A stretch of DNA of 64,000 nucleotides from Candidatus Kaiserbacteria bacterium (GTDB lineage Bacteria; Patescibacteriota; Minisyncoccia; Phycocordibacterales; UBA2100), in assembly GCA_016214605.1 (NCBI GenBank), contig JACROD010000012.1, forward strand, positions 57 to 64,056, read 5' to 3'. This document shows, one piece after another, positions 3,005-55,414 of this stretch (position 1 is its first letter; each line of letters starts with the position of its first letter). The position numbers and the translations under genes were made by a program. A model generated the notes under the pieces. The model did no database searches and was not told where the DNA came from. It saw only the letters and a list, made by a program, of their open reading frames with translations.

Positions 3005-5935
3005 ATGATAAAGAAACTCCTCCCCGCCCTCCTTTCCGTCCTGTTCATCTTCCCGTTCTCCGCATCCGCTCTCACACAGCAAGAACGCACCACCCTCATC
3101 TTCCAGCTCGTCGCCAAAGTCCTCGAGCTCCAAAAGCAGATCGTCGCCCTCGGCGGCACGCCGATCGCAATCCCGCCAGGTCTTGCGGCACTGGCACAGC
3201 AGGGACAAAATCCCACAACACCATCGACGACTCCCAACCCTCTTGCTATTTCGTTTACCGCACCAGCCACGAGCACGGTGAGTGGTACGGTCACACTTAC
3301 GGCGGTAGCTTCAAGCACGAACGCTATCCTCGGCGTCCAATTCAAACTTGACGGTGCAAATCTCAACGCCGAAGACACAACATCACCATATTCAATATCA
3401 TGGAACACCGCATCAACGACCAATGGCGCGCACACGCTTGCCGCTGTAGCACGCGATGCGGCGGGGAACAGAGCGACGAGTACGCGCGCCGTGACGATCT
3501 CAAACGCTGCCGTCGACATGATCCCGCCAGCCGTCCCCTCGTCTCTCTCGGCGACCGTCATCTCGCAAACCCAAATCAATCTCTCATGGTCTTCTTCCGC
3601 CGATACTGGCGGTTCGGGGCTTGCAGGGTACAAGGTGTATCGCAATACTGTTCAGATCGGCACCACGACCAACACATCGTTCCAAAACACCGACCTTACG
3701 GCTTCCACTACCTATACGTATGCCGTCGCCGCATACGACAATGCAGGCAATATATCAGCCAAGTCGGCCGGCGTCTCAAAAACGACACTGTCGGTCGCTA
3801 CTTCGTTGACATCCGCTCAACAGCTTGCCGCCAAGCTACACCAGGATACGCTACCGGTATTCAAAGCGGATCACACTCTGCCGCCTCTCACACGATGGGG
3901 GTGGCAGCTCAATTACGACCTTCAAAAAGAACTCGCCGAGGAGTGGGGGTATGCACTTGACTTCGGCATGGCGACAACCTCGAGCATAAACGCGCTCCAA
4001 TCCCCGGCGAGTCTGCAATCGAGGCTGGTCGCTCTCACAAAATCCGATCCGAAACGGTATCCGATGTCGGCGCTTGTGTGGCGTGGCTATCCGGCATTGG
4101 ACCCTGCAATAGGCTATATTCACGATAGTGCAGGAAATCTCATCAAGGAGCCAATCAAAGGTGCGAATATTTTTAGTCCGCTCGCTCCCGATTCGTACTT
4201 CAAACAGGCAGGACAGATGCGGGCCAATTCGCTCAAGGGATTGGTGGCAAAAGTGCCCGTCTCCATCGTCCTCAACGGGGGTGAGGACAGCCCAAGCTTG
4301 GCGAATCCGGGTCTTTATAATGCTCAATATGAGCAGGATCCGGCCGTCGTGGCGGCTCGTGCTATCGCACCGTGGACATACCGCGATTACGGTCCTGTGC
4401 CGTGGGCCTACTACATCTCCGAACGGAAAGCCCATCAAGAGAACATTATTTCCGATTCCATCCGCGCGGCCGTGCCCAACAGAATACTCTATGTCTACTA
4501 TCCGACAGGCGGACCGTTGTACTCGCTTTGGAATGCCGATCGCGCATCACAAGAGCTTGTCGATTCTTACTGGGGATATCCATGGATGCGTGCCGTGTCC
4601 GATATGCCGTCAAATCAATATTACACAGCTATATTCAATAAAGGGTACACTGTGGATCCGAACGACCTGCTCTCGCAGATGCTTAAGTCCAAGGGATTGG
4701 AATTCGCGTACGGCGATTATCTGTCGTACAATTGGGTTGCTAACTACGGTTTTGACTCGGCGGTTCTACCCAACGATCGTTACATCGGTTTCCTCAAGAT
4801 GGCTTATGGTGCCGGCATGATGGGCGGCATCGCGGGCTACTTCTCGTATCCCGCGGATGCCTTCGGTACGAAGTGGCAGGGGGGCGCATATCCGGATTGG
4901 CTCGTGCAAATGATGGCACTCTCCCAAGTGCATGCGGCATTCAGCTGGCTAGAGCCATTGGTGCACGTCAGTGATCTTCTGCCCGGCCCCGCCATACAAC
5001 CGACGACGTTCGCGTTTCCGGCGTACGAATTCCCGACGGGTGATGCCGGTGCGCGAGTCGTCGCGCGCAGGCACCGCGGCGCGAACATCTGGCTCGTCGT
5101 CGCGTGGGCGCAGAGCGGCGATGCGCGCACGGTGAGTATCGCGATACCCGATCTTGGTACGGTATCTGTCGTGGCGCGGCCGGCTGGCAGCATCTATCTT
5201 GCGAAGCCGGGAAGCGGTTCTACGGCGATTACATTGCTTGACTCCGATGCGATGCACCCATCCATCGGAATGCAAACGGCCATCACAAACGCGGGGGGAC
5301 TTGGGAGTTCGATATCGAATAGTCCTATCGGATCAGACACTAAACCGCCGTCGGTGCGCATCACGTCGCCCAAACCGGCATCATGGCCGTGTTGGAGGGG
5401 ATCCGAAAATGCTATCGTCGCGGCGGCGGACGACAACGTCGGCGTGACGAGCGTGCAGTTCCAGCTTGACGGGGCTAATTATGGATCGCCGATCGCCAAA
5501 GCACCGTATCTTATGAGTTTGAACACGACTCTGCTACAAGATGCGCCGGGACCGGACGGGAAAGGTGTGAAGTATGCCATCACGGCAATTGCGCGGGATG
5601 CCGCCGGTAATACAAGCACGTCGGCGCCAATCACTCATTGTGTCTATAATTATCCGATCATGTCTATATTGACGCCTGCCGCGAGCTCCACTGTTTCAGG
5701 GATAGTCACACTAACTGCATCTTCAACCGGGATTACTCCGCCGGCGGTCAGAGCACAATACTACATCGATGGCAGTACGTCGCTTGGGACGGCAACGTCT
5801 TCTGCTCTATCCTATAAACTAAAATGGGACACAACCACCACTACCAATGGTCTGCATGTGGTCAAGGTTGTCGGTTCTGATTGGAGAGGGTATATAGGCA
5901 CCTCGCCCACTATCACTGTTATGGTCAAAAATTAA
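3005..5935 (+). CDS. Secreted multidomain protein: signal peptide, coiled coil, Ig-like domains, a fibronectin type III domain and a large uncharacterised domain
   Basis: The N-terminus MIKKLLPALLSVLFIFPFSASA is a signal peptide. The FN3 signature is 'PPAVPSSLSATVISQTQINLSWSSS...GYKVYRN...TSFQNTDLTASTTYTYAVAAYDNAGN'. It shares the VQF(K/Q)LDGAN...ARDAAGN Ig-like module with its neighbours. The ATG at 3005 is preferred over 2990. Confidence 0.65.
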   Translation: MIKKLLPALLSVLFIFPFSASALTQQERTTLIFQLVAKVLELQKQIVALGGTPIAIPPGLAALAQQGQNPTTPSTTPNPLAISFTAPATSTVSGTVTLTAVASSTNAILGVQFKLDGANLNAEDTTSPYSISWNTASTTNGAHTLAAVARDAAGNRATSTRAVTISNAAVDMIPPAVPSSLSATVISQTQINLSWSSSADTGGSGLAGYKVYRNTVQIGTTTNTSFQNTDLTASTTYTYAVAAYDNAGNISAKSAGVSKTTLSVATSLTSAQQLAAKLHQDTLPVFKADHTLPPLTRWGWQLNYDLQKELAEEWGYALDFGMATTSSINALQSPASLQSRLVALTKSDPKRYPMSALVWRGYPALDPAIGYIHDSAGNLIKEPIKGANIFSPLAPDSYFKQAGQMRANSLKGLVAKVPVSIVLNGGEDSPSLANPGLYNAQYEQDPAVVAARAIAPWTYRDYGPVPWAYYISERKAHQENIISDSIRAAVPNRILYVYYPTGGPLYSLWNADRASQELVDSYWGYPWMRAVSDMPSNQYYTAIFNKGYTVDPNDLLSQMLKSKGLEFAYGDYLSYNWVANYGFDSAVLPNDRYIGFLKMAYGAGMMGGIAGYFSYPADAFGTKWQGGAYPDWLVQMMALSQVHAAFSWLEPLVHVSDLLPGPAIQPTTFAFPAYEFPTGDAGARVVARRHRGANIWLVVAWAQSGDARTVSIAIPDLGTVSVVARPAGSIYLAKPGSGSTAITLLDSDAMHPSIGMQTAITNAGGLGSSISNSPIGSDTKPPSVRITSPKPASWPCWRGSENAIVAAADDNVGVTSVQFQLDGANYGSPIAKAPYLMSLNTTLLQDAPGPDGKGVKYAITAIARDAAGNTSTSAPITHCVYNYPIMSILTPAASSTVSGIVTLTASSTGITPPAVRAQYYIDGSTSLGTATSSALSYKLKWDTTTTTNGLHVVKVVGSDWRGYIGTSPTITVMVKN

Positions 5936-7125: not shown

Positions 7126-7752
7126 ATGTTAGCACTTGAAGTACAGGTACGTGATCCGAAGGAAACTCCGGACGAATTGCGCGCGCGAGGTATCGTGCCA
7201 GCTGTTATGTATGGCCACAATGAGCCCGCCCAGTCTATCTCGCTCAATGCCGGGGTCCTGGAGGGGGTCTGGCGCGATGCAGGCGAGACGACCGTGATCA
7301 CGCTTAAGGGCCTCAAGGACGATAAGGAGACCCTGATCCACGATGCCCAGGTGCATCCCGTTACAGGTAAGCTTATGCATGTGGATTTCTTGGTTCTCGA
7401 AAAGGGCAAGAAGATCGAGATCTCCGTCCCGCTCGAGTTCGTCGGTGAGGCTCCGGCTGAGAAGGCGGGCCACTCCCTCAACAAAGCCCTCCACGAGATC
7501 GAGATCGAGGTCGCTCCGGCTGAGCTCCCGCACAGCCTTGAGGTAGACATCTCATCTCTCACCGAGATCGGTGATCACCTCACTGCCGCACAGATCAAGC
7601 TCCCACCGAGCGCCACCCTCATCACCGACCCCGAAGAATTCGTCGTATCGGTCACCGGCCACGAAGAAGAGCCTGCTGAAGAGGCCAAGACCGAAGAGGC
7701 CGCACCGGCAGAAGACGAGGCCCCGGCCGCTGAGGCCGCGACTGCCGAATAA
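7126..7752 (+). CDS. rplY: Ribosomal protein bL25 (general stress protein Ctc form) with an acidic Ala/Glu-rich C-terminal tail
   Basis: ...RARGIVPAVMYGHNEP...VHPVTGKLMHVDFLVLEKGKKIEISVPLEFVGEAPA is the L25/Ctc beta-barrel plus C-terminal domain. The ORF-track start at 7099 is a TTG. The ATG at 7126 fits the L25 N-terminus. Confidence 0.85.
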   Translation: MLALEVQVRDPKETPDELRARGIVPAVMYGHNEPAQSISLNAGVLEGVWRDAGETTVITLKGLKDDKETLIHDAQVHPVTGKLMHVDFLVLEKGKKIEISVPLEFVGEAPAEKAGHSLNKALHEIEIEVAPAELPHSLEVDISSLTEIGDHLTAAQIKLPPSATLITDPEEFVVSVTGHEEEPAEEAKTEEAAPAEDEAPAAEAATAE

Positions 7753-7771
7753 TCATTGCGTAGTTAAAGAA

Positions 7772-7808
7772 GAGAACGCGTAGTCGAGAGGCTGCGCGTT
7801 CTCTTTTT
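7772..7808 (+). terminator. Rho-independent terminator after rplY
   Basis: GAGAACGCG ... CGCGTTCTC is a 9 bp stem, followed by TTTTTAT. Confidence 0.7.
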
Positions 7809-7889
7809 ATCCACATGCGATCAAGGAGTCATATCCACCAGCAAATATCATATATAATGAAGAGACATTACTGTAATTATATTTGTCAC

Positions 7890-10800
7890 ATGCCTATGCC
7901 ACGCCTAAGGTATCCTGCCGCCCTTTTATTTGGTGTCGCATTTGTATACCTCCCGCAGCTTGCTCTCGCTGCGACACTCAGTCCCGGTGCCGACTGTGTC
8001 ACAGGCCAGACCGCACCAAAATCAGAATATTCTATCAATGTTCCTTCACTTCCGTTGGGTGGGTATGCCGCCAATTCGCTCTCAACAGATTTCACCAATG
8101 CCGCCGGATCAGTCGGTGCCAATACGTATTGGACGGCCTCATCGACCAAGTATCTCGTTCCGACTAATCAGGCACAATTCGTGCTCGCTTCCAAATATTG
8201 CTCACGCGATGAGGAGGTCGAGACGTGGATCCGCGCTGGTCGCGTGTACCTGCGCCTTACGCCTGACGGAAGAGGTGTATTTTTTGATATCAATCCAAAC
8301 ACGACCAACGGAACGCTTATCGTCGGAATCGCGACAAGCACGACCGAAACGCAGTACTATCCCGGCTACAGTCGGTACCTCTACTCCAACGACAACATGG
8401 TTGGAACGATCCCCGGATATTCAAAGACAGCGACCGATGCGCAGCGATTTATCTTCGGTGTCGAAGGATTCGACATGTATGCGAAGTTCAACGGCGTCGA
8501 GTTTATGCGCATCAAAGATTTTCATCACATGGCACCGGGTCGCATGGCTATCAAGACGCCGGCGGGATATGGCGTCCGCTCCACGACGGTCCGTAACTTC
8601 TCCAATAAAACGTTCCTAAGCGATCTGGTAGCCGGCATCTACGATCCGCGCGACTTCGGCTTCCGCTCCATCCAAACGACCGGTTCCATCAGTGCCGGCA
8701 GCAACACACTCACGCTCGCGGGCCCGACATCCTTTACCGTCGGCGACTTTGTGATCGTGGAGATCGGCAAAGAGCCGGGCGCCGGCATGCGCGGTACCAA
8801 GGGAGTCGGCGGCACGTGGCCTGCGAAATCCTACCCGGACCTCACCACGATGCAGGCGGATACGTCGCAGATCGATGGATTGTATGCCTGGCGCGAAGAT
8901 ACCGGAGATGTATATAAATTCGCCACAGCCACATCTTCGTGGGGAAGTGCTTACTCATGGTACACGGCCGGGACGCCCGCATGGGGGCTTGATCGGGCCG
9001 CCAAAAATTATTATTCCGCCAAGGCAATCCCACGTGCACTACAGGCGCGTGTCACGGCTGTAGCCAACAACGGCGCCACACTTACCCTCGACAAATCCGC
9101 TACTGTCTCCGTCTCGGGTGCGAATGTCTACCTTGATGTCGCTCCGATACTCAATTTTCTCGTCGGTACGGACAACTGGTACAAGTTTGGCGGCGTCCCG
9201 GGAGACCTGACCGCACTTGTTCCTCTCAATATGCGAACAGTCCTCCCCGCTGGCTCGTATGCGGTCGGCGGTGCCATCATCACCGGCGGGCAGCGATCGA
9301 ATAATGTCCTATACGGACAAGGATCAAGTACTACGATGCTCTTTAGCCCCAAAGGCGTGCCCTCGGCTTCGATTTGGCTCAACGGCTCAAACAACATGGT
9401 GCGCGATCTACGTCTCGTCGGCAATACGGGCTTGAACGGATTCGGTATCGCCTGGCCCACCACGATCATTCCGTGGGGATATGGTCCATCGGGGCTTGAA
9501 GTGTCATATACAAGCCCTGGTGTCGTCACCGAAACAGTGATTCCGCAAGGGATGGGCTGGCCCTTCGGCATCTTGATGTACGGGAGTAATCTCATTGTGC
9601 AGGACGTCAAGGTAGACAATGTATGGCAGGACGCGGTTGGTGCCAGCTATTGCTATGGTTGCTGGGCGCATCGCGTTGAAAACACGCAGACCGATCCTTT
9701 GCAGAACTATATTCAGTGGCAATTCTTGTGGAGTGATGCGGTTGGTGGCGGGTGCGTCGATTGCATCGTGAAAAGCGACTGGCTTATTGCGGGGTTCTCA
9801 ATCGTCAAAGGCAACGGCGTGCAGTTCATCCGCCCCAAGGGCATCAATGCCACCTTCGAGGTGAATTCATCCGGCAATTTCCTCTATCAGGATCCCGAGA
9901 CGGTGATCCAGCCGATGCGTCAGTCTCCTTCGTTCTCGTCGAACGGGTACATCATGAATATCAATACCAACATGGACAATGCGCTTCCGGTCGAGCAGCG
10001 CGACAAACGCAACGCTGCGGGTGGCAAGATCATCAACCCACACTTCATCGTAGAGGGTCCGATCAATACCAACAATAATGGCCTCAATGCGATCGCTATA
10101 GGGAACTGGGCTCCCAATGTCACTGTCCAGGGCGGCTATATCGAAGGGCCGAATTGGAAGTCGCCGAGCACCATCAATACGCCGGTGGGGGTGATCTCGC
10201 AAGGTACGAGCACTATTGTCGACGGATTGCGCGTAGTAGGTACCGTCAATCCGGCCCTCTTCCCCAAAGGGAACATTATGCTCTTTAAAGATGGGGTTGC
10301 CCGGAATTGCATAGCGGACCTGATCATTCTCTTCGACAAAACAACAAAGAAAGAAAACTGCATGACAAATGCGGAGTACCTGGCGAGTAAAGCGCCCAAG
10401 ATCACCATCACCATACCATCCAATAGCAACGTATCGGGTGCCATTACTGTAGCGGCGTCAACGACCGGCGCCAATCTGCAAGGAGTGCAGTTTTGGCTCG
10501 ATGGTGCGAATCTTGGCTCCGAAGATACCATGGCGCCATACAGCGCCGGGTGGAATACCGCAAGTTCGACCAATGGTATCCATACGCTTACGGCAATCGC
10601 GCGCAATGCACTGGGACAGCAAGCGAGCAGCACCGTAAGCGTACATGTTGCCAATGCCTCTCCGGTAGCGGGCGTTGTGTGCGGGAGCACAACGATCGCG
10701 CCAGTCGCAGAATACGGCGTGCCCGTCTCGCTACTGCCGCTGGGCAGCTATGCGACCAGTTCGCTTTCGGCGTATTTTGAAAATCCTGCCGGAATCATCT

Positions 10801-21706: not shown

Positions 21707-24604
21707 ATGCGGCAGTACGATCACAAAAAGATAGAGAAAAGGTGGCAAAAAGAATGGGAAAAGAAAAAAGCCCATGTCGTCAAGGACAAGGTCGCCGGCA
21801 AGAAAAATGAGTATCTGCTCGTCGAATTCGCATATCCCTCGGGCAATCTCCATGTAGGACACTGGTATGCTTTTGCGGTCCCGGATATCTACGGGCGCTT
21901 CCGTCGCGCACAGGGGCGCAATGTCTTGTACCCGATGGGATTTGATGCTTTTGGTCTGCCTGCCGAAAATGCCGCGATCAAAAACAAGCTCAATCCGCGC
22001 ACGTGGACGTATGCCAATATCAAACACATGAAAGGTCAGCTCGCCTCGATGGGGGCGTCTTTCGATTGGAGTAGGGAAGTGATCACGTGCGATCCGGATT
22101 ATTATCGTTGGACACAGTGGCAGTTTCTCCAGTTTTACAAAAAAGGTCTCGCATACCAAAAAGAGACCGCCGCCAACTGGTGCCCCAACGACAAGACCGT
22201 GCTCGCCAACGAGCAAGTGGTCAATGGCCGCTGTGAGCGATGCGGCGCCGAAGTAGAACAGCGCCAGATGGTTCAGTGGAATCTCAAGATCACCGACTAC
22301 GCCGACCGCCTCATCGACGATCTCACCAAGCTCGATTGGCCGGAGCAGATCAAGGAGAGTCAGCGCAATTGGATCGGTCGGAGTGAGGGGGCCCAAATTG
22401 ATTTTTTCCTTAATTTCGAGAATCAAATATTTAATGATCGTATTGGACCCACCGGCAAGAAGGCTCATGTCACAGCGTTTACCACACGGCCCGATACACT
22501 CTATGGTGCCACGTATGTGGTGCTTGCACCGGAGCAGTCATGGCTCACGCGTGCTGTTTACGAAGATCAGATGCTTAAAAATAATGATGAGGTAAAAGCA
22601 TATATCGAAAAGACGAAGAAAAGAAGCGATCTTGAGCGCCAAGAGAATAAGGAAAAGAGCGGTATCAGACTCGAAGGTGTTAGTGCGATCAATCCCGCCA
22701 CCGGAGAGAAGATCCCGGTGTTTGTAGCGGATTATGTTCTCGGTAGCTATGGTACCGGGGTTGTCATGGCCGTGCCAGCGCACGACGAGCGCGATTTTGA
22801 ATTTGCCAAGAAGTTTGATCTGCCGATCAAGGCGGTGATTGAACCAATGTTCACTGCAAAAAACGGAGAAGATGCAGTTAAGGCAGAACTTCCATTAAAC
22901 AGGCGCGAAGCGGTTGTTTGTGTAGTTAAGCATTGGTCAGAAGATAAATATCTTTGTCTAAAGTGGAAAAAAGTAGCCTGGAGTGGCTTTGTCACCGGTG
23001 GCATTGACGGTAGTGAATCGAAAGAAGAAGCCGGTAAAAGAGAAATTCTTGAAGAAACTGGATACAAAAATGTCAGATTCATAAAAGAACTTGGTCAGGT
23101 TGTTAATGTGCAGTTTTACCACGTCCTAAAAAAAGAAAATCGCTGGGCACGATTCCAAGGATTACTCTTTGAATTAACTGATAGTGAGCAAGAACAAATA
23201 AGTGAAGAAGAGAAAGATATACATGATATTCACTGGCTTAATCGCGATGAAGTCGAAAAATTTCTTTCAGTTGGGGATATGAAGCTTATTTGGGATCGCG
23301 CAATGGGAAAAGAATCCGCATATACAGGTTCAGGCATCCTTGTAAGTTCTAGTCAATACGACGGACTTGCAAATCAAGAAGCCAAAAAATCGATCACCGA
23401 AAAGTTTGGCCGTGCCAAGAAGACCTACCGCCTGCGCGATTGGGGAGTATCGCGTCAGCGGTATTGGGGTGTGCCGATACCGATCATTCACTGTGATGAT
23501 TGTGGTGCGGTCCCGGTGCCCGACAAGGATTTGCCGGTCAAGCTTCCCGAGGTCAAAGACTATCTTCCCGCAGGAGATGGCAAATCGCCGCTCGCCAAGG
23601 CGACCAAATGGGTCAATGTAAAATGCCCCCAGTGCAAAGGCAAGGCGATGCGCGAGACGGATACCCTTGATACGTTTGTCGATTCGTCGTGGTATTTTCT
23701 GCGCTACACCGACCCTAAAAACAAGAAGCAATTCGCCAACAAGAAAAAGCAGGCGACCTGGATGCCGATCGATCTCTACTCGGGTGGTGCCGAGCACACC
23801 ACGATGCACTTGCTCTATAGTCGCTTTTGGCACAAGGCGCTCTATGATCTCAAGCTCGTCGGCGAGAAAGAGCCGTATACGCGCCGCATGAACCGCGGAC
23901 TCATCCTCGGTCCCGACGGCGCCAAGATGAGCAAATCAAAAGGCAATGTCATCGACCCGGATGCGGTGGTGGCCCAGCTGGGAGCTGATACGGTGCGCCT
24001 CTATCTCGCATTCATCGGTCCGTACAATGAAGCGGGTAGCTACCCATGGAATCCTGATTCGATTGTCGGCGTGCGCCGATTTCTCGAGCGCGTCTGGCGA
24101 CTAGGACAGTTAACAGTTGACAGTAAACAGTTGACAGCAGATGCGGAAGTCGAAAGATTGTTACATAAGACGATCAAGAAGGTGGGGGAGGATTGCGCGG
24201 AGATGAAATTCAACACCGCCATCTCGCAGATGATGATCTTCGTGAATACCGCTGAATCAAAAGGCATCACCCGCGCGCAGTATGCGACATTCGTGCGGCT
24301 CCTCGCGCCATTTGCACCACATATCACCGAAGAACTCTGGCATGAAATAGGTAATAAAAAGTCGGTCCATCTGGAGCCGTGGCCCAAGTACGACAAGAAG
24401 AAGCTCGTCTCCGACACGGTTACGATCATGATCCAGATCAACGGCAAGCTCAGGGGTGAGGTGCGGGTCGCCGCCGATGCCGACAAGGATACGGTCGAAT
24501 CGGCTGCCAAGCGCGCGGTCGCCGATCGTCTCACGGACCAGACCATTCAACGCACGATAGTTGTCCCTGGCCGTCTCGTGAATTTTGTCGTATTGACAAG
24601 GTAG
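21707..24604 (+). CDS. leuS: Leucyl-tRNA synthetase carrying an in-frame Nudix-hydrolase-like insertion
   Basis: HVGH (HIGH), CP1/editing-region landmarks (TTRPDTLYGATYVVLAPE, GTGVVMAVPAHDERDFEFA), RLRDWGVSRQRYWG, KMSKS, and anticodon/C-terminal domains are all collinear with bacterial LeuRS. An extra ~150-160 aa segment lies between ...LPIKAVIEP and GSGILVSSSQYDG... Confidence 0.95.
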   Translation: MRQYDHKKIEKRWQKEWEKKKAHVVKDKVAGKKNEYLLVEFAYPSGNLHVGHWYAFAVPDIYGRFRRAQGRNVLYPMGFDAFGLPAENAAIKNKLNPRTWTYANIKHMKGQLASMGASFDWSREVITCDPDYYRWTQWQFLQFYKKGLAYQKETAANWCPNDKTVLANEQVVNGRCERCGAEVEQRQMVQWNLKITDYADRLIDDLTKLDWPEQIKESQRNWIGRSEGAQIDFFLNFENQIFNDRIGPTGKKAHVTAFTTRPDTLYGATYVVLAPEQSWLTRAVYEDQMLKNNDEVKAYIEKTKKRSDLERQENKEKSGIRLEGVSAINPATGEKIPVFVADYVLGSYGTGVVMAVPAHDERDFEFAKKFDLPIKAVIEPMFTAKNGEDAVKAELPLNRREAVVCVVKHWSEDKYLCLKWKKVAWSGFVTGGIDGSESKEEAGKREILEETGYKNVRFIKELGQVVNVQFYHVLKKENRWARFQGLLFELTDSEQEQISEEEKDIHDIHWLNRDEVEKFLSVGDMKLIWDRAMGKESAYTGSGILVSSSQYDGLANQEAKKSITEKFGRAKKTYRLRDWGVSRQRYWGVPIPIIHCDDCGAVPVPDKDLPVKLPEVKDYLPAGDGKSPLAKATKWVNVKCPQCKGKAMRETDTLDTFVDSSWYFLRYTDPKNKKQFANKKKQATWMPIDLYSGGAEHTTMHLLYSRFWHKALYDLKLVGEKEPYTRRMNRGLILGPDGAKMSKSKGNVIDPDAVVAQLGADTVRLYLAFIGPYNEAGSYPWNPDSIVGVRRFLERVWRLGQLTVDSKQLTADAEVERLLHKTIKKVGEDCAEMKFNTAISQMMIFVNTAESKGITRAQYATFVRLLAPFAPHITEELWHEIGNKKSVHLEPWPKYDKKKLVSDTVTIMIQINGKLRGEVRVAADADKDTVESAAKRAVADRLTDQTIQRTIVVPGRLVNFVVLTR
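22847..23325 (+). other. Nudix hydrolase domain inserted in-frame into leuS; AT-rich relative to the rest of the gene
   Basis: The encoded segment contains GGIDGSESKEEAGKREILEETGY, a perfect Nudix box G-x5-E-x7-REUxEExGU. The DNA here (for example aaaaacggagaagatgcagttaaggcagaacttccattaaac) is far more AT-rich than flanking leuS sequence. The segment starts 1140 nt (380 codons) from the leuS ATG, so it is in frame. Confidence 0.7.
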
Positions 24605-24650
24605 TCTATCTGGACTATAGTTTTTTTAGAGGATTGGGGAGGGTAGGATC

Positions 24651-24887
24651 ATGCTGAAGCCAGTTTTTGCTTGCGCGCTCCTGTGCCTGAGCGCTTTTGC
24701 CGTCTCGCCCGCACATGCGTCTCTTGGCGACCAGACGAGCCTGAGTGTCGAAGAGGTGAACAAGCGCTATGCGCTTGCCGACTCGTCGGAGATTGCCAGG
24801 CTCGCGAGACTGTTCCGCGCCCTGCGGGAAGAGCAGGAGCGCGTGGACGATGTAATGAAGAAATGGGATCGGTGGCTGTTCCACTGA
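24651..24887 (+). CDS. Small secreted protein (signal peptide)
   Basis: MLKPVFACALLCLSAFAVSPAHA is a signal peptide. A good SD sequence (GGGGAGGG) lies upstream. Confidence 0.4.
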   Translation: MLKPVFACALLCLSAFAVSPAHASLGDQTSLSVEEVNKRYALADSSEIARLARLFRALREEQERVDDVMKKWDRWLFH

Positions 24888-24903
24888 ATAGAGGAGAAAA
24901 ACA

Positions 24904-25137
24904 ATGGTTGAACGTCTGCCTAATGTCAGCTTTGTTGGCGGAGTATGCGCTGGCATCGCTTACGAGTACGGCATCCCCGTATGCCTTGTACGCACTGCGG
25001 TAGCGATCGTGTGTGTGGCTCTTTTGTTCCCCACTCTGCTTTATATTTGGGAGTGGAAAGTTGGTTCCTCGGTGGACTATTATACGCCGGGCGACTACAA
25101 AGACAGGACATCCCTGTTCGGGCTCTTTGTGGACTAA
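24904..25137 (+). CDS. PspC-domain membrane protein
   Basis: RLPNVSFVGGVCAGIAYEYGIPVCLVRTAVAIVCVALLFPTLLYIWEW matches the PspC domain pattern (R...GVC.G.A..F.I...VR). Confidence 0.6.
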   Translation: MVERLPNVSFVGGVCAGIAYEYGIPVCLVRTAVAIVCVALLFPTLLYIWEWKVGSSVDYYTPGDYKDRTSLFGLFVD

Positions 25138-25310
25138 GGACAGGAGGGCTCACGCTTCGGTGCGGGCTCTTTTCTTTTTATTTCTTAAACACCCGCAGGC
25201 CGTTTGCGCCATCTTACCATAGTGTAGTCAACCACTCCGATCCTATTGCGTAGTTCGTTAGTATTACAGGCTACCACTTCAATCTCATTCTCGTAAGAAT
25301 CCAAACAAAA

Positions 25311-25349
25311 TAATATGCTATAATCACACGGCCGTGTATAAATAGCATA
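25311..25349 (+). promoter_or_regulatory. Promoter/operator block upstream of the PaaX-like regulator gene (copy 1 of a duplicated motif)
   Basis: The block is aatatgcTATAATcaCACGGCCGTGtataaatagcata. It holds a perfect -10 hexamer abutting a 12 bp palindrome ACACGGCCGTGT. It is about 85% identical over 39 nt to the block at 26022-26059. Confidence 0.55.
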
Positions 25350-25384
25350 CACGATTTTTATACATTCATACATCCGAATCAAGT

Positions 25385-25960
25385 ATGGGAGACATGGAAC
25401 GACGGGGCAAGAAACGTGCGCAAAAAAGAGACTTGCAGCGTGCTCTGTTGAGCGCTGTTGCCTTTGCGGGACTACTCGCACTCGCCGCCGTGCCCTCGAA
25501 TCTTCCCCTGGCTCTGGCCAGACTCGGCATGCTTCCTACAGGGCCCAAGGATGCGGGGACGGTCAACCGCGCGAGGAATCGACTCATCAAGAAAGGATTG
25601 TTGACGCGCACGAAAGACGGTTTCCTGCGTTTGACCCCGGCAGGCACACGTGCCATGCGCACGATCGAATTACAGGACTCCTTGCTCAAGAATTCCCGGC
25701 GATGGGACGGACGATGGCGTGTGCTCATCTTCGATATTCCCGAAAAGTACCGGAGGACGCGTGAGAAACTCAGGATGACGATCCTTTCCGTGGGCTTTGT
25801 CGGTTTGCAGGGCAGTGTGTGGGTCTTCCCGCACGATTGCGAAGACTTCGTGGCACTTCTCAAAGCCGATCTGCATATCGGAAACAATCTCTTGTACATG
25901 ATCGTCGATGAAATGGAAGCCGACGGTCCACTACGCAAACATTTCGGTTTAGATCAGTGA
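25385..25960 (+). CDS. PaaX-family transcriptional regulator (short form: winged helix plus PaaX middle domain)
   Basis: ...NRLIKKGLLTRTKDGFLRLTPAG is winged-helix-like. RWDGRWRVLIFDIPEKYRRTREKLRMTILSVGFVGLQGSVWVFP aligns with E. coli PaaX 'AWDGKWLLLLSEGLDKSTLADVKKQLIWQGFGALAPSLMASP'. Confidence 0.6.
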   Translation: MGDMERRGKKRAQKRDLQRALLSAVAFAGLLALAAVPSNLPLALARLGMLPTGPKDAGTVNRARNRLIKKGLLTRTKDGFLRLTPAGTRAMRTIELQDSLLKNSRRWDGRWRVLIFDIPEKYRRTREKLRMTILSVGFVGLQGSVWVFPHDCEDFVALLKADLHIGNNLLYMIVDEMEADGPLRKHFGLDQ

Positions 25961-26021
25961 GAAACAGGGAAGAGAGTTGGAAAGGGGCTTGATCATGTTG
26001 TGGAGTTAGGGATTGTTTGAA

Positions 26022-26059
26022 TATGCTATTTTCATACGGCCGTGTAAAGATAGTATAAG
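26022..26059 (+). promoter_or_regulatory. Promoter/operator block (copy 2) upstream of the hypothetical gene at 26158
   Basis: The block is aatatgctattttCATACGGCCGTGtaaagatagtata, with an ACGGCCGT palindrome core. It is near-identical to the block at 25311-25349. Confidence 0.55.
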
Positions 26060-26157
26060 GTTGTTTTGGGAACACATGGGAACACATGATGTTGATGTGC
26101 AGGAGAGAAGATGCTATCTTTTCCGTGGAAGGGTAGTTTGCAGGGGGGGGATGTGTT

Positions 26158-26562
26158 ATGTCCAAAGCCAAGATAGCCCTCAATACAGGGATCGCAGTTG
26201 TCTACGATGGTGACGATGTATACGGCCTAAAAATAGGGAAACCCGAGCCGGAAAACATCAGTGGGATGAACATTGCGGTGTTGTTGCAAATGGGAGGACC
26301 GTATATCAATCTTCTTGCGGGGCCGTACCCTTATAAAAAAGTGTACGACATCATGTCTCTGGAATGTCCGGCCTTTCGTATCGTCAAGAAGGTGTTGGAT
26401 GCGCGTGGGCTCGCCGACGAATATAAAATCGAAAGATCATTGTGTAAAAGTGATGTCATGGTACTTGCTGCAGAGGCGAGTAGGGAGATACTCGCGCTTG
26501 CCTTGGAAAGGCTTTGCGACAAAGAATACAGGCCTAGGGTCCTAGCAAATGAACGTGATTAA
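26158..26562 (+). CDS. Hypothetical protein, probable target of the PaaX-like regulator
   Basis: A 134 aa ORF with an ATG start, preceded by the duplicated operator block. No recognisable motifs were found. Confidence 0.45.
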   Translation: MSKAKIALNTGIAVVYDGDDVYGLKIGKPEPENISGMNIAVLLQMGGPYINLLAGPYPYKKVYDIMSLECPAFRIVKKVLDARGLADEYKIERSLCKSDVMVLAAEASREILALALERLCDKEYRPRVLANERD

Positions 26563-26608
26563 TTTTAATAAGTTCCGGGAGGCGACCCTCGGGACTTATT
26601 TCTTTGAA

Positions 26609-28117
26609 TTACTTTTTGAAAACCCGTAAACCACCAACACCGTCTTCCATGGTGTAGCCGGCCGCGTCTATTTCGTTGCGGAGTTCGTCGGCGCGAGACC
26701 AGCTTTTTTCTTGCCGCGCTTCTTCACGCTCGGTGATCATTTTTTGTATCGCTTCGGGAAGGGAATCGATCGAGACTTCTTCTTGCATCTCACTGGCGGC
26801 CAGTGTACGCGCCGCTTCATTGGGTTCGATGAGACCGAGACCGAGCACTCGGTCGAAGTCGAGCAAGGTCGCGAGGAGGTCGGCTTTTGAGAGCGTGGTA
26901 TCTTTGGTCATTTCCCATATCACCGCGAGTGCTCCCGGTGTGTCGAGATCGTCGTTGATGCGTTCCATGAATTTTTGTTGCCAGGCCATCGATACGATGC
27001 CCGGAGGAGTGACGGTACCCAAAGTGCCCGCAAGCGAGAGGCGCAGAGCGAGGAGCTTGGCGAGCGCGGTCTGCGAAGCGGCGAGCGCCTCCCAAGAAAA
27101 ATTAGAATTGGTACGATAGTGTGCCCCAAGGAATAGGTAGCGTAGCGCGAGTGGGTGGAGCCCGCGCTCGATCACATCGGAGAGATATATCACATTACCA
27201 AGGGATTTTGAGATCTTTTGTCCTTCTATCTGGATATGTGCGCGATGGATCCAAAATCGCGAAAAGGGCTTCTTGCCGGTCGCGGCTTCGGACTGCGCTA
27301 TTTCATTATTGTGGTGCACGGGGATGTGTTCGATGCCGCCGGTGTGGATGTCGATCTGTTCGCCCAGAGTGGCGCGGATCATTGCCGAGCATTCGATGTG
27401 CCAGCCCGGGAAACCCTTGCCCCACGGACTGTCCCAGCCGATCTTGGGATCGGATTTCCAGAGCATAAAGTCGGTCGGGCGATGTTTATCTTCGTCGACA
27501 GCGACGCGCGCGCCCTCGCGCAATCCCTCGAGATCAATTCCGCCGAGTGCTCCATAAGCGGGGAAGAGGGAAGTGTCGAAATACACGCCGTTTGCCGTCT
27601 GGTATGCGTAGCCTTTTTCTTCAAGTGCTCGGATCATGGCGATCTGTGCGGGTACATAAGCCGATGCGCGGGGGAATTCGATCTTGGTCGTGTCGATATT
27701 GAGCTTGGTGAGATCGTCAAAGAATATTTGTGTGTAACGCTCCGCGAGGAGCGCCATGTTTTCCATGGTGACTTTCATTTTTTCGCGCTTGAGACCTTTG
27801 GTCATTTTGTCTTCGCCTTCATCCGCATCGGAGGTGAGGTGACCAAAGTCGGTGATGTTGATCACTTGTTTGACCGGGAAGCCGTTTTTCTCAAGTGTGC
27901 GACGCAAAATATCGGCAAACACAAACATACTCAAATTACCGATTTGTTGCACGTTATAGACGGTCGGTCCGCAGTTGTACATGCGTACCGTCTTCACATG
28001 ATCTGGCAGATCAAACTGCTGGAGTTCCTTGCCGAGCGTATTGTAGAGAAAGAGCGGCGGTCCGCTGCGGGCAGGCTCCTTCTTGTGGGGGACATTTCTA
28101 AACATGAGTCGTTTCAT
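26609..28117 (-). CDS. cysS: Cysteinyl-tRNA synthetase
   Basis: CGPTVY (Zn-ligand Cys), WHIECS, HTGGIEH..HHNNE, the KMSKS-type KISKS motif and the C-terminal DALR-like region are present. The canonical HIGH motif reads QIGN. The exact start (28117 or 28103) is uncertain. Confidence 0.9.
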   Translation of the reverse strand: MKRLMFRNVPHKKEPARSGPPLFLYNTLGKELQQFDLPDHVKTVRMYNCGPTVYNVQQIGNLSMFVFADILRRTLEKNGFPVKQVINITDFGHLTSDADEGEDKMTKGLKREKMKVTMENMALLAERYTQIFFDDLTKLNIDTTKIEFPRASAYVPAQIAMIRALEEKGYAYQTANGVYFDTSLFPAYGALGGIDLEGLREGARVAVDEDKHRPTDFMLWKSDPKIGWDSPWGKGFPGWHIECSAMIRATLGEQIDIHTGGIEHIPVHHNNEIAQSEAATGKKPFSRFWIHRAHIQIEGQKISKSLGNVIYLSDVIERGLHPLALRYLFLGAHYRTNSNFSWEALAASQTALAKLLALRLSLAGTLGTVTPPGIVSMAWQQKFMERINDDLDTPGALAVIWEMTKDTTLSKADLLATLLDFDRVLGLGLIEPNEAARTLAASEMQEEVSIDSLPEAIQKMITEREEARQEKSWSRADELRNEIDAAGYTMEDGVGGLRVFKK

Positions 28118-37709: not shown

Positions 37710-38295
37710 ATAAAAAAAGAGGGGAGAGGTGAGGGGAGTTTTTACCCCTTTTCCCTGCTTCCTAAAATAGGACCCCTACCCCGGTGGGGGAGCGGAAAGG
37801 GCCTCCCCGGTTTTTTAGCGCGATCCTTTTTATACCGACGTGAGCCGATAAAGATATTTCCGAAATATTTTTTGAGGAGGCCAACAAAAAAGAGGGGGTA
37901 GACAACAAATCTCGGGAAGTGTTGTAATGATCTCGGCCCTGTGGATAACTTCTATAGGTAACGTCGCACAATATATCTTTTGCGACACATCGCTAGGGCG
38001 CAATGTCGCAAAAGATACGCCACAATGTGCAACGCAGTCTTCTTCGAAGAATACATCGCACAATGTGGCGCAGTCCCGAGTGCATGCCATTACTTTGCTC
38101 ATATCGCATTTTAGGACCTCTGGCTTCCCCGGACCTCGGGTCGGCTCTTTTTGGTCCGGGGGCTCTCCGAGCCTCCCGGACCTGATACTAGGTATGGGTC
38201 CAAACGGCCAGAGGCCCGTATAGGGCCTCAAAAAATTGCCGAGATCAGGGAAGTCGGACTTCCCTCTTTTTTGATCTAACCGGGGGAGTCAAAAA
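37710..38295. other. About 590 bp non-coding, repeat-rich region with several stem-loops (possible structured RNA, regulatory array or island boundary)
   Basis: There is no convincing ORF. There is a G-rich hairpin with a T-run (GGGGGAGCGGAAAGGGCCTCCCCGGTTTTTT, about 37770-37810). A cluster of related motifs follows (tcgcacaatat, tgcgacacatcgc, gcgcaatgtcgca, gccacaatgtgcaacgc, tcgcacaatgtggcgcag, 37960-38080). Further hairpins are ccggacctcgggtcggctc...gagcctcccggacc and ggcccgtatagggcc. Confidence 0.4.
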
Positions 38296-38330
38296 TAATG
38301 ACCTCGATCGAGGTCATTATTTTTGATTAT
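38296..38330 (-). terminator. Terminator for the AT-rich minus-strand cassette
   Basis: A perfect 14 bp inverted repeat AATAATGACCTCGA/TCGAGGTCATTATT is flanked by A/T runs. Confidence 0.65.
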
Positions 38331-38617
38331 TTATTTTGGATCGGGCTTTTCATTGGCTCGTCGGGCAGACTACCTTCGATCTGTACGCCGTTGGCTTTTT
38401 CGAATTCTTCGATCTGACGGAGGATCATCCGGCCGAGCCGTTTTGCGAATACGAGATTTGTGGCAAAGACATCCGAATGCTGGCCCGAACGAAATGCGAG
38501 ATAAAACGCGCCTTCTCGGATCTGGAGCGAGAACATCTCCGGATAGGTGCGGGCTCCGGTGTGGGTCGTCTCAAAAGGATTTTGGTCTTGATTGGGCATG
38601 GTCCAAGTATACCTCAA
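38327..38617 (-). CDS. Hypothetical small ORF (TTG start in ORF track; internal ATG at 38597-38599)
   Basis: It lies directly downstream of the 245 aa gene and overlaps its stop. The coding status is uncertain. Confidence 0.25.
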   Translation of the reverse strand: MRYTWTMPNQDQNPFETTHTGARTYPEMFSLQIREGAFYLAFRSGQHSDVFATNLVFAKRLGRMILRQIEEFEKANGVQIEGSLPDEPMKSPIQNK

Positions 38618-39351
38618 GATCCCCGGTTCAGGAGAATCGCTTTTGCAGGCCTTAGTAATTCTCCTACTGCAGAGTTGTATTCTCTTACAGAAGCGTTTCG
38701 ATTCACACTAGGCGAATCTTTCCATGTATTATAAAGTGTTCGAATCCCCGGGAATGTTCCGTTGCCAGGATAGAGACCTTGAACTATAAAATATACTGCG
38801 AATTGCTCCACTATCACCACGAATATTGGAATAATAGATTCCATAGCTTTTTCATGAGTCGCTTTTTGTTCGATAACCCTGAGAGCGAATTCCTCCATAA
38901 GATTTCCAAGAGTTGTTATATCCTGTCGAAGTTCAAGGCTATTTGTAGCGAGATATATTCTTGCCTGTTCCCTCGCAACATCGGTGTGAGTTCGTAAAAA
39001 AGTGGCTCGATCAAAGCTCTCCATTCTGGTGGAGAGGAATGTATAAGAGCCATTGGTGCCATGTGTTGCAACGATTGCACTTTGAATTTTCGAATGGAGT
39101 GGAATGATGTCATCGCGAGTGATATCTAATAATGCGCTGACGGCATCTATGCGATCTTTCCTCTTTTGATAAACATATTGATACACGGCAACAAAAGCTA
39201 ATGCGGCCAAAACTACTTGAGAGGCATATGACAAGTCTTCTAGGAGCGGTTCAAGATGATAGTAGACGGTCATCATCAGTGCAATGAAGGCCCCGATGCC
39301 AAAACCTACGAGAGTAAACACCCATTCCCTGCTTTTTATTAAAGTTTGCAT
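38614..39351 (-). CDS. AT-rich hypothetical membrane protein (two N-terminal TM helices plus a soluble domain)
   Basis: A 245 aa ORF with an ATG start at 39349-39351. GC is well below that of its neighbours (murG/gltX and others). Confidence 0.5.
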   Translation of the reverse strand: MQTLIKSREWVFTLVGFGIGAFIALMMTVYYHLEPLLEDLSYASQVVLAALAFVAVYQYVYQKRKDRIDAVSALLDITRDDIIPLHSKIQSAIVATHGTNGSYTFLSTRMESFDRATFLRTHTDVAREQARIYLATNSLELRQDITTLGNLMEEFALRVIEQKATHEKAMESIIPIFVVIVEQFAVYFIVQGLYPGNGTFPGIRTLYNTWKDSPSVNRNASVREYNSAVGELLRPAKAILLNRGS

Positions 39352-53854: not shown

Positions 53855-55414
53855 TTAGGCGCGGGTGATCGTGATACGTGGCATTTCGTCAGCGTTTTGA
53901 GCAAGCTTGATGATCATCGTATCTGCGGTCGAGTCGCGGTATTCGCCACGGGTCGGAAGATCTGCGAAAGACGTTTTTTGCGCGACTGCCGGAGTCTCGG
54001 TCATGGTGACCGGAGTTGCTGTTGCCTTTACGGCGGCGACATGCGAACGTTTGACCTCTTGGCGGTTGCTGCGTACTGTGCCGCTTGCGAATGCGAGGCC
54101 TCCCTTGTAGTAGAGCGCGAGGTATGAGGCAGCGAGAGCGAAGCTCAAGAGTCCTGCCCAGTAGATCGCGTTGCCGATCGGACCGAAGTCAAAGCCGGTG
54201 TACGGAATCTGCGTGAGCGAGACGTACGGCTTCGTAGGCACCTGCGGAGGAACGTAAACCGGAGGTACATATGCCGGTGGCTGATAGACCGGAGGCTGTT
54301 GCTGGTAGATCACCTGGGTCTGGCAGGTGTTGCTGCCGCCTTGACCGTGGACCGTCAGGGTGTAGATCGTCGTGCCGCCTACAGGGTAGACCGTAGTCGA
54401 GCCGTTAGGATTCACCGTGCCGACATTCGGACTGATCGAGGCCGAGAAGGCGTTGGTCGAACTCCATGTGAGCGTGACGGGATTGTTGCTGTAGCTGTTA
54501 TAGTAGGAATTCGAGACACTGATCGTACAGGTCGGAAGCATATAATTCTGCGCGAAGTTGTAATTGATCGCGAACTGATTTGGTGCCTGATAGACCGGAG
54601 CCGGGATATTGATGTTGTTGATGTTGGTGTTGCTGATCGGAGCCTGATTCTGTGTGACCGTGACCGGGTTGTTCTGAGTCTGTGTGTGAGTGCTCGACAA
54701 GACCTGGCTGTTGGCCTGATGATTTGTCTGATTCTGCTGCTGTTCCTGATTAGAGGAGCCGCCGGTAGCAGTGGCCGTCACATGAGTGGTGGTCGGCCAG
54801 GTCGGGATCGGGGTGTGGTCTACGTACTGGTTGTTATTGTTGTAGGTGTTTGAGTGGGACGGCGTCGCGGTGTAGCGCGGCATTGTCGGCCAGGTCGGGA
54901 TTGGTTCGTAGACCGGACGAGCAGGCGGGATGTAGTAGCCACCGCCCGTCGAGTATCCGCCGAATCCACCTATGCCGCCATAGCTCGGGGTGCCGTAGGA
55001 ATAGATCGGAGAAGCAGTGTTGCCGTAGTCGTATCCGCCGTAGCCGGTGGAATAATCATACGGTGTTGAGTAGTCGTATGATGTGGAGTAATCATACGGG
55101 GTCGTATAATCATACGGCGTCGAGTAATCGTATGATGTTGAGTAGTTGTAAGGGGTGGAGTAGTCGTATCCTGTTGAGTAGTCGTAAGGAGTAGTGTAGT
55201 CGTATGAGGTTGAATAATCATATGGCGTCGAGTAATCGTATGATGTTGAGTAGTCGTAAGGGGTGGAGTAGTCGTATCCTGTTGAGTAGTCGCCGCAACA
55301 ACCGCCATCGCCAGCATATTGCGCATGAGCAATCGGAGAGAATGCGAAGAGTGTGCTCAAGACAAGCACCGAAATGATCCCAGAACCAGCGATCTTGTTT
55401 GTCATTACGTTCAT
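53855..55414 (-). CDS. Secreted/surface protein with (YDYSTP/S)n hexapeptide tandem repeats, a Thr/Gln/Asn-rich linker, a beta-rich domain and a C-terminal membrane anchor
   Basis: The signal peptide is followed by GYDYSTPYDYSTSYDYSTPYDYSTSYDYTTPYDYSTGYDYSTPYNYSTSYDYSTPYDY... The C-terminal region reads ...SLTQIPYTGFDFGPIGNAIYWAGLLSFALAASYLALYYKGG, followed by an approximately 80 aa tail. Confidence 0.7.
   Translation of the reverse strand: MNVMTNKIAGSGIISVLVLSTLFAFSPIAHAQYAGDGGCCGDYSTGYDYSTPYDYSTSYDYSTPYDYSTSYDYTTPYDYSTGYDYSTPYNYSTSYDYSTPYDYTTPYDYSTSYDYSTPYDYSTGYGGYDYGNTASPIYSYGTPSYGGIGGFGGYSTGGGYYIPPARPVYEPIPTWPTMPRYTATPSHSNTYNNNNQYVDHTPIPTWPTTTHVTATATGGSSNQEQQQNQTNHQANSQVLSSTHTQTQNNPVTVTQNQAPISNTNINNINIPAPVYQAPNQFAINYNFAQNYMLPTCTISVSNSYYNSYSNNPVTLTWSSTNAFSASISPNVGTVNPNGSTTVYPVGGTTIYTLTVHGQGGSNTCQTQVIYQQQPPVYQPPAYVPPVYVPPQVPTKPYVSLTQIPYTGFDFGPIGNAIYWAGLLSFALAASYLALYYKGGLAFASGTVRSNRQEVKRSHVAAVKATATPVTMTETPAVAQKTSFADLPTRGEYRDSTADTMIIKLAQNADEMPRITITRA
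54990..55300. repeat. Tandem DNA repeats encoding the YDYSTP hexapeptide array
   Basis: The 18/36 bp periodicity (..gtagtcgtatgatgttgagtagtcgtaagg..) is visible. Two near-identical segments of about 70 bp lie about 108 bp apart. Confidence 0.7.

Follow-up and report, generated by a model that had tools for sequence, protein, structure and literature searches.

A self-bracketed family of minimal PaaX-like proteins, probably autorepressors, in CPR bacteria

PaaX, the repressor of phenylacetate catabolism in Escherichia coli and Pseudomonas (TIGR02277; structure 8A39), consists of a winged helix-turn-helix (wHTH) at the N-terminus, a Cas2-like dimerization domain (PF20803) and a C-terminal helical effector (phenylacetyl-CoA) domain. 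PaaX autorepresses Px by promoter occlusion, and its site is a widely spaced inverted repeat, TGATTC-N27-GAATCA (PMC9493321). Here we analyze a relative of PaaX, the 191-amino-acid (aa) product of HZC00_01255, together with the two palindromes that bracket its gene in a 64,000-nucleotide (nt) stretch of DNA (the window, to which all coordinates given without a locus name refer) from a metagenome-assembled genome (MAG) contig of Candidatus Kaiserbacteria (Parcubacteria; candidate phyla radiation, CPR). We think it rather probable that this protein is a minimal PaaX-like autorepressor, made of a wHTH and a Cas2-like domain with no effector domain, which has one operator in its promoter and an auxiliary operator 3′ of the gene; the binding itself, the repression and the role of the second copy are what we infer.

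Several other described systems bear on this locus. Cas2, a subunit of CRISPR adaptation, and VapD, a toxin RNase, share a beta-alpha-beta-beta-alpha-beta ferredoxin-like fold. In the REP/RAYT systems, or ‘REPtrons’ (repetitive extragenic palindromes and their REP-associated tyrosine transposases), a single-copy gene lies between cognate palindromes particular to its lineage, with solitary copies in intergenic regions; REP copies number tens to hundreds per genome, and the RAYT protein has the HUH-Y1 fold. LacI (O1/O2), GalR (OE/OI) and lambda CI (OL/OR) each have two cognate operators several hundred bp apart, placed about the promoter or gene that they regulate. In the library that could be searched, we found no literature in which PaaX or PF20803 is linked to CPR, Patescibacteria or Cas2, and the self-bracketing architecture described below appears to be undescribed.

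The gene and its two palindromes

The features that carry the argument are these, with a slash marking the dyad of each palindrome.
25385..25960, + strand: HZC00_01255, gene for the minimal PaaX-like protein, 191 aa
25314..25349, no strand: upstream palindrome (predicted operator U), TATGCTAT-aatcac-ACGG/CCGT-gtataa-ATAGCATA, dyad between 25331 and 25332
26022..26057, no strand: downstream palindrome (predicted operator D), TATGCTAT-tttcat-ACGG/CCGT-gtaaag-ATAGTATA, beginning 61 nt past the stop codon
25337..25342, + strand: -10-like TATAAA, at +6..+11 from the dyad, the family-typical -10 position
25316-25324, + strand: -10-like TGcTATAAT in the left arm of the upstream palindrome, read from the sequence

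A sequence-only reading of this DNA had proposed an autoregulated two-gene module, in which a block with a palindromic core next to a -10-like hexamer recurs 35–60 nt upstream of both the regulator gene and the following gene, which encodes 134 aa. The two blocks (25312-25349 and 26020-26057) are real and are 84% identical over 38 nt, but the symmetry is not confined to the core. Each block is a 36-nt palindrome, TATGCTAT-N6-ACGGCCGT-N6-ATAGCATA, in which the outer arms TATGCTAT/ATAGCATA are complementary as well as the core ACGGCCGT. The hexamer was confirmed in block 1 only; where block 1 reads TATAAA, block 2 reads TAAAGA and has no good -10 at +6..+11, and the promoter part is therefore not duplicated. 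The distances also held for one gene and failed for the other: block 1 ends 35 nt before the regulator ATG (53 nt from dyad to ATG), whereas 100 nt separate the end of block 2 from the ATG at 26158. The family-conserved N-terminus MGxxE favors the 191-aa regulator start used here over the 188-aa call of NCBI.

The palindrome is scarce, as the sequence-only reading expected of an operator. A 24-position pattern of the block matched these two sites and no others across the 64 kb and was never matched in 100 shuffles, and a pattern of the outer arms alone likewise matched only the two blocks. No third site was found in the window at ≤3 mismatches or with a generic palindrome scan, and an operator of the window type had 0 matches in JGI metagenomes. 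A longer duplication, the other possibility which that reading had raised, was rejected; similarity is confined to 38–50 nt, reaching at most an inverted match of 50 nt at 74%.

The family of the protein counts over 650 protein-database clusters and, in genomes taken one per species, at least 580 loci; it is essentially confined to Parcubacteria/Paceibacterota. Several genomes have 2–4 paralogs (one, P0032, belongs to the same genome as the window), which are only ~45–55% identical within a genome and have different palindromes. No family member was found on IMG/VR contigs, which gives no sign of a viral origin. Bins labeled Nitrososphaera, Gammaproteobacteria or Saccharibacteria hold some members, probably through mis-binning or mislabeling. 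Members are named ‘hypothetical protein’, ‘DNA-binding transcriptional regulator PaaX’, ‘phenylacetic acid degradation operon regulator’ or ‘CRISPR-associated endonuclease Cas2’ in databases.

In 79 of 80 fetched loci, we compared the 150 nt before the gene with the 200 nt after it, counting a common 36-mer at ≥25/36 identity as shared. Sixty-four of the 79 loci share a 36-mer between the two flanks, with a same-locus median of 29/36; pairing upstream flanks with the downstream flanks of other loci gave a mean of 20.4 and a maximum of 28. The downstream copies lie 0–90 nt past the stop codon, and cross-matches between loci are confined to the flanking positions. The shared element is always a palindrome of one design, with the consensus aTACACTAA-N6-GCTA/TAGC-N6-TTAGTGTAt; its center is CTATAG or CGRYCG and its arms are lineage-specific. 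The closest orthologs of the window protein (L001, L131, L132 and L133; ~60–74% identity) stand in other genomic contexts and have arms of the window's type, ATGCTAT...ATAGCAT, on both sides of the gene. The self-bracketed architecture is conserved in the family and specific to each locus.

Some loci carry further copies. A third palindrome, of the same or a related type, is found in L024 (~3734-3774), 79 nt upstream of the start of a convergent 279-aa neighbor, so that the neighbor is bracketed too; in L054 (1001-1041), beyond a tRNA-Leu gene, which it likewise brackets; and in L082 (~1345). The downstream copy is doubled in L042 (889, 981) and L060 (3610, 3667).

The position of the upstream copy points to a role in the promoter. 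The A of the ATG comes exactly 17 nt after the dyad in 36 of 64 loci, the start codon forming the outermost part of the palindrome (CATACAC...GTGTATG). We scored a box where at least 5 of the 6 bases of TATAAT stood exactly at +6..+11 from the dyad; in 61 well-registered loci, 49% of upstream copies had one versus 10% of downstream copies, with 11–16% on the reverse strands. Because this -10 box ends 6 nt before the ATG and leaves no room for a leader, most members are likely to be leaderless, with the whole promoter and the start site inside the putative operator. The window member belongs to the minority with a leader; its implied transcription start site, near 25349-25351, would give a leader of ~35 nt. 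The palindrome is very likely the operator of the 191-aa protein, and the comparative evidence strongly supports the autoregulation that had been proposed.

A distant PaaX relative and its predicted mode of DNA recognition

The kinship to PaaX claimed from sequence was borne out by profile searches. The sole significant Pfam match of the 191-aa protein is PaaX_M (PF20803, ‘PaaX protein central Cas2-like domain’), at E 9.4e-20 and 70.9 bits, above the gathering cut-off of 24, over residues 105-175. The TIGR02277 PaaX model aligns to residues 59-159 (model positions 36-137, E 1e-8), spanning the recognition helix, the wing and the WDGRW middle domain, and so covers both the winged-helix alignment and the W-D-G-(K/R)-W domain that had been recognized by eye; its score of 35.1 bits does not reach the equivalog cut-off of 264.55. 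The N-terminal PaaX Pfam domain gave no match at E≤1, with only weak matches to Mrr_N and MarR. The alignments to TIGR02277, to 3KFW and to 8A39 begin at the recognition helix, and the AlphaFold2 (AF2) model shows helix-wing geometry there. The protein is, as had been noted, much shorter than canonical PaaX (191 versus 316 aa); there is no PaaX_C match to the C-terminal effector domain, and the chain stops 16 residues after the Cas2-like domain. No paa catabolic genes lie beside the window gene, and the neighbors of family genes are housekeeping genes. On these alignments, the 191-aa protein is a distant relative of PaaX, not a PaaX equivalog.

The AF2 model, built from a 113-sequence alignment, has a predicted local distance difference test (pLDDT) score of 77 and comprises a long, low-confidence N-terminal helix, a wHTH, a linker helix and a beta-alpha-beta-beta-alpha-beta domain. 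The wHTH, which a basic N-terminal tail precedes, has its recognition helix at residues 59-69 (nt 25559-25591) and its wing at 73-83, with pLDDT ~90. The Cas2-like domain (residues 105-175, nt 25697-25909; residues 111-174 in the model) also has pLDDT ~90. Foldseek against the PDB ranked Rv0674 of Mycobacterium tuberculosis (3KFW, PaaX-like, uncharacterized) first and E. coli W PaaX (8A39) second, followed by VapD and many Cas2 chains. The suggestion that the middle domain has a Cas2/VapD-type fold therefore held up in both the model and the structure search; this fold is already known and is recorded in the Pfam name.

In a search with the family profile, the E-values were 2.6e-4 for 3KFW (profile positions 55-149), 0.33 for 8A39 and 0.86 for a type II-A Cas2. 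Rv0674 is the best match in both sequence and fold among solved structures; unlike the window protein, it is 247 aa long with an extra C-terminal part and has LIVTSIG instead of FDIPE. The family motif FDIPE...R..R..L...GF..LQ.SVW aligns to FDMP...R..R..L...GF..Q.SVY of type II-A Cas2. The Cas2 Asp motif is kept in the family and lost in E. coli PaaX and Rv0674. The domain is nevertheless unlike Cas2 and VapD proper in falling below the Cas2 family thresholds (TIGR01573, 20.7 vs 24.5; PF09827, 12.5 vs 23.8), in being fused to a wHTH, and in its surroundings, with no cas genes, cas1 included, adjacent to the regulator. No CRISPR array was found in the 64-kb window. An array of 18-nt (6-codon) tandem repeats at 55021-55326 (~12–17 units) lies within a 519-aa open reading frame (ORF; 53855-55414, − strand) and represents a repetitive protein, not a CRISPR array.

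Protein and palindrome covary across the family. In 61 proteins aligned with their consensus half-sites (2451 residue-base pairs, with no correction for phylogeny), the top association is between residue 62, in the recognition helix, and arm position 14, where 33 of 34 Arg cases have C and 8 of 8 Ser cases have T. For residues 58 and 59 the association is to arm positions 15-17, and four of the top six pairs fall within residues 56-66 and positions 13-18 (hypergeometric p 7e-6). In the Cas2-like domain, residue 127 tracks positions 4-5, and residue 143, within LQ(D/N/H/G)SVW, varies with the type of center: 37 CTATAG to 9 CGRYCG with Asp, against 2 to 14 with other residues (Fisher p 2e-6). 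The same contrast is seen within the window subfamily, where the arms are identical; G143 accompanies CGGCCG in the window, L131 and L133, and D143 accompanies CTATAG in L001 and L132. These data point to a tripartite operator, in which the wHTH would read the arms and a Cas2-like dimer would read the dyad.

Most likely, then, a symmetric dimer binds the 36-bp palindrome in three parts. The recognition helices of the two wHTHs would read the outer 8-bp arms, ~3 helical turns apart, and the Cas2-like dimer would be placed over the dyad. Copy 1 (25314-25349) is predicted to hold the -10 of the regulator's own promoter, and because that -10 lies inside it, binding would occlude RNA polymerase and give negative autoregulation. 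For copy 2 (26022-26057), the probable role is to reinforce autorepression through looping, to stop transcription from crossing the 3′ boundary, or both; it may alternatively serve as a decoy. Such an operator would resemble that of PaaX in being a widely spaced inverted repeat, here with 8-bp arms 20 bp apart and the -10 inside. It would differ from it in having a conserved center that covaries with the Cas2-like domain, and in the second predicted operator past the stop codon of a gene whose transcripts, in most members, are apparently leaderless.

Downstream and solitary copies of the palindrome

The second copy is where the sequence-only reading and ours part. That reading took it as a duplicated promoter/operator controlling the 134-aa gene, and parts of the locus agree with it. 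The ORF is listed here with its upstream signal.
26158..26562, + strand: HZC00_01260, 134-aa ORF, with an SD-like (Shine-Dalgarno-like) GGGGGGGGA upstream; a real gene, not a conserved cassette partner

The ORF is co-directional with the regulator, begins 100 nt past copy 2 and has a good Shine-Dalgarno sequence. We found nothing terminator-like from the regulator stop codon to the ORF, making read-through gated at copy 2 possible. The closest ortholog, L001, also has a small co-directional orphan ORF after copy 2; both window genes lie within a variable island, which a close relative does not have; and a weak TTTTCA-16-TAGTAT can be read inside copy 2, on sequence alone. Against this, copy 2 lacks the family -10 (it has TAAAGA), and no + strand promoter was found in 25960-26158. 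About 80% of the 79 family loci have a downstream copy whatever the neighbor, which argues that the copy belongs to the regulator's cassette. The first downstream neighbors of ≥100 aa are convergent in 28 cases and co-directional in 23, and encode unrelated housekeeping proteins (PurD, ATP synthase a, RNase H, ThyA, TopA, aminoacyl-tRNA synthetases, RbfA, IF3, LigA and others). A gene start at the position that U would predict follows only 1 of 61 downstream copies. Symmetry is on average better in the downstream than in the upstream copy (better in 35 loci, worse in 19). Within the window subfamily, the cassette is followed by the 102-aa ORF of L001, which is unrelated to the 134-aa ORF, by 795 nt in which no gene is called, or by a 585-aa convergent gene.

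For the 134-aa protein itself, a full HMMER search of 1.84e9 representative proteins returned one relative, P0122 (33% identity, 118 aa), which is not adjacent to a family gene; a word-based search returned the protein itself alone, and there was no match in Pfam, NCBIfam or PADLOC. The structure prediction that had been proposed for it, a single-sequence AF2 model, had a pLDDT of 43 and was unusable. Control of the 134-aa gene as a general feature is not supported by these comparisons, and we consider the two-gene module rather unlikely. In this locus, read-through into the 134-aa ORF could be gated by protein bound at copy 2, incidentally to the family-wide feature. Between the downstream palindrome and the ORF lies a 10-nt tandem repeat, GGGAACACAT x2 (26069-26088); an analogous 14-nt direct repeat, CCAGGAAGAGAAAT x2, occupies the same relative position in L001 (6682-6722), before that locus's own unrelated ORF.

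The downstream copy might instead act in RNA, as a 3′ hairpin that terminates or stabilizes the transcript, with its likeness to the upstream copy secondary. Downstream and solitary copies do lie 0–60 nt past stop codons and are nearly perfect palindromes of 36–48 nt. However, the 10 nt after the downstream stem contain a mean of 2.8 T, with ≥6 T in only 8%, while this genome's ordinary terminators are hairpins followed by a T-run. There is no wobble bias among the mismatches of downstream copies (50 G:T vs 50 A:C), and copy 2 of the window folds at -12.9 kcal/mol, with a z of -0.65 against shuffles. The central step is R/Y in either orientation (CGGTCG or CGACCG), a feature of DNA, and a role in RNA leaves the covariation with the recognition helix unexplained. 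We therefore regard this explanation as highly improbable. By its sequence features, the second copy is a DNA-level, promoter-less predicted operator of the regulator's own cassette.

Palindromes of the family type are also found away from family genes. A consensus-type pattern matched 45 loci in metagenomes, of which 12 flank a family gene and 33 are solitary. Solitary sites are intergenic, between tandem, divergent and convergent genes, often 7–31 nt past a stop codon, and 7% of them have a -10 box. We considered whether they were remnants of decayed family genes and rejected this, since no hidden Markov model (HMM) match lay within 900 nt to either side. The 476 kb surrounding family genes hold 92 flanking sites and 5 others, or ~1 solitary site per 95 kb, which fits a handful of extra sites per paralog and not REP-like abundance. 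In L115 (3823-3858; also in L099 and L121), a perfect solitary palindrome follows rbfA by 31 nt and precedes a tRNA-Cys/tRNA-Leu pair by ~97 nt, adjoining an unannotated 291-aa ORF (4501-5376); rbfA is the convergent neighbor of the family gene in three other genomes.

These sites bring the family close to REP/RAYT systems or a mobile cassette, in which a Cas2-fold nuclease would act on cognate palindromes, its gene between them would be mobile or domesticated, and the solitary copies would be dispersed products or empty sites. The layout is similar: a gene with cognate palindromes on both sides, a palindrome of its own in each lineage, and solitary intergenic copies, often just past stop codons. 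The invariant FDIPE corresponds to the Cas2 Asp motif, lost in PaaX and Rv0674; the window cassette is in a variable island; and self-complementarity runs through the unconserved spacers of the palindromes. Yet there is no signature of an HUH/Y1 or other transposase in Pfam, NCBIfam or PADLOC searches, and no HUH motif in the conserved columns. Paralogs ~45–55% identical with different palindromes are not recent copies, and orthologs keep their synteny, both in L005, L014, L017, L019 and L034, which lie downstream of a 684–713-aa ORF, and in the TGTACC group. Solitary sites are rare where REP copies abound, with none in the window, and the upstream copy, unlike a REP, carries the gene's promoter. 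The family is absent from viral contigs, and the corresponding empty site in L129 is a plain terminator with no palindrome. We also tried the cassette ends as inverted repeats and rejected them; the upstream right arm, with its -10, is not mirrored in the downstream left arm. A REP/RAYT-like element is in our estimate very unlikely.

A broader proposal is a Parcubacteria-wide system in which the dyad of a private 36–48-bp palindrome is read, and perhaps also cleaved, by the Cas2-fold domain, the copies being protein-dependent transcription-unit boundaries or REP/RAYT-like maintenance substrates. If so, each paralog would mark both ends of its gene and a few intergenic sites with promoter-less copies, and the protein would be a relative of Cas2 that binds DNA sequence-specifically and has kept the Cas2 Asp motif. 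This proposal we hold to be unlikely.

Several observations weigh against the autorepressor that we favor. In the window, 35 nt separate the upstream copy from the ATG, which makes this member one with a leader, and there are two candidate -10s. The covariation statistics, as stated, are not phylogeny-corrected. The locus-variable spacer bases are still self-complementary (0.56 upstream, 0.68 downstream, 0.79 solitary), a symmetry that exceeds what contacts to arms and center would need. Promoter-less solitary sites in all types of intergenic region are unlike a classical operator set. Distances from U to D, 588–731 bp, show no helical phasing (p ~0.1) and lend looping no positive support; the arrangement resembles that of LacI, GalR and lambda CI in that one operator overlaps a promoter and the other has none, but differs from it in this lack of phasing and in the place of the second predicted operator, just past the regulator's own stop codon family-wide. 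The invariant FD117IPE resembles the catalytic-Asp motif of Cas2, and a catalytic role is possible. Finally, residues 20-36 (nt 25442-25492), a hydrophobic ALLSAVAFAGLLALAAV after 8 Lys/Arg, look like a signal anchor or transmembrane segment and are modeled with low AF2 confidence; when aligned to PaaX, they match helices 1-2 of the wHTH.

Genomic setting and significance

Two terminator-like elements delimit the surroundings of the gene.
25142..25186, + strand: hairpin plus T-run 3′ of the PspC-domain gene, from sequence; Rfam gives only a weak, terminator-like chance match
26567..26600, no strand: terminator-like hairpin between the 134-aa ORF and the convergent cysteinyl-tRNA synthetase (CysRS) gene

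Because of the first of these boundaries, the regulator would need a promoter of its own. No known RNA families were found by Rfam in 24500-26800. The neighbors of the regulator are leucyl-tRNA synthetase (LeuRS), a 78-aa ORF, a PspC-domain protein, the orphan 134-aa ORF and CysRS. Four small genes thus occupy the LeuRS/CysRS junction (24605-26608) in the window. In L129, whose CysRS is 81% identical, LeuRS and CysRS are convergent and 40 nt apart (7489-7528), with a terminator alone between them and no empty-site palindrome; in L130, a 75% relative, two other small genes fill the junction (7540-8059). Since the content of the junction differs among the three, 24651-26562 (78-aa ORF, PspC-domain gene, regulator and orphan) is, by this comparison, a variable island.

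Two features elsewhere in the window were recorded in passing. The LeuRS gene (21707-24604, 965 aa) has an apparent NUDIX insertion, judging from the Pfam lists of the L129 and L130 orthologs. At 38288-38326 there is a near-perfect 38-nt palindrome, TCAAAAATAATGACCTCGA/TCGAGGTCATTATTTTTGA, with 19/20 pairs, a CGATCG center and an A-run and a T-run on its flanks; it resembles a bidirectional intrinsic terminator, and its arms are unlike those of any family operator. The ORFs beside it, 37830-38231 (− strand) and 38336-38734 (+ strand), have no Pfam match.

CPR/Patescibacteria have tiny genomes with few recognizable regulators and almost no experimentally characterized transcription factors. A minimal, self-bracketed PaaX-like autorepressor family, which is how we would, with fair confidence, describe these proteins, comes with its own predicted operator beside every gene and so offers a recognition code, in which residues 58, 59 and 62 would correspond to arm bases 14-17 and residue 143 to the type of center. 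It also suggests a promoter model for CPR, with a -10 box 6 nt before a leaderless ATG. For annotation, the labels ‘hypothetical’, ‘PaaX’ and ‘CRISPR-associated endonuclease Cas2’ are all inaccurate for genes of this family. The family appears as a compact intermediate between Cas2/VapD and PaaX that has kept the Cas2 Asp motif, and its Cas2 fold is apparently used close to DNA, which bears on how this fold was recruited for DNA-directed functions.

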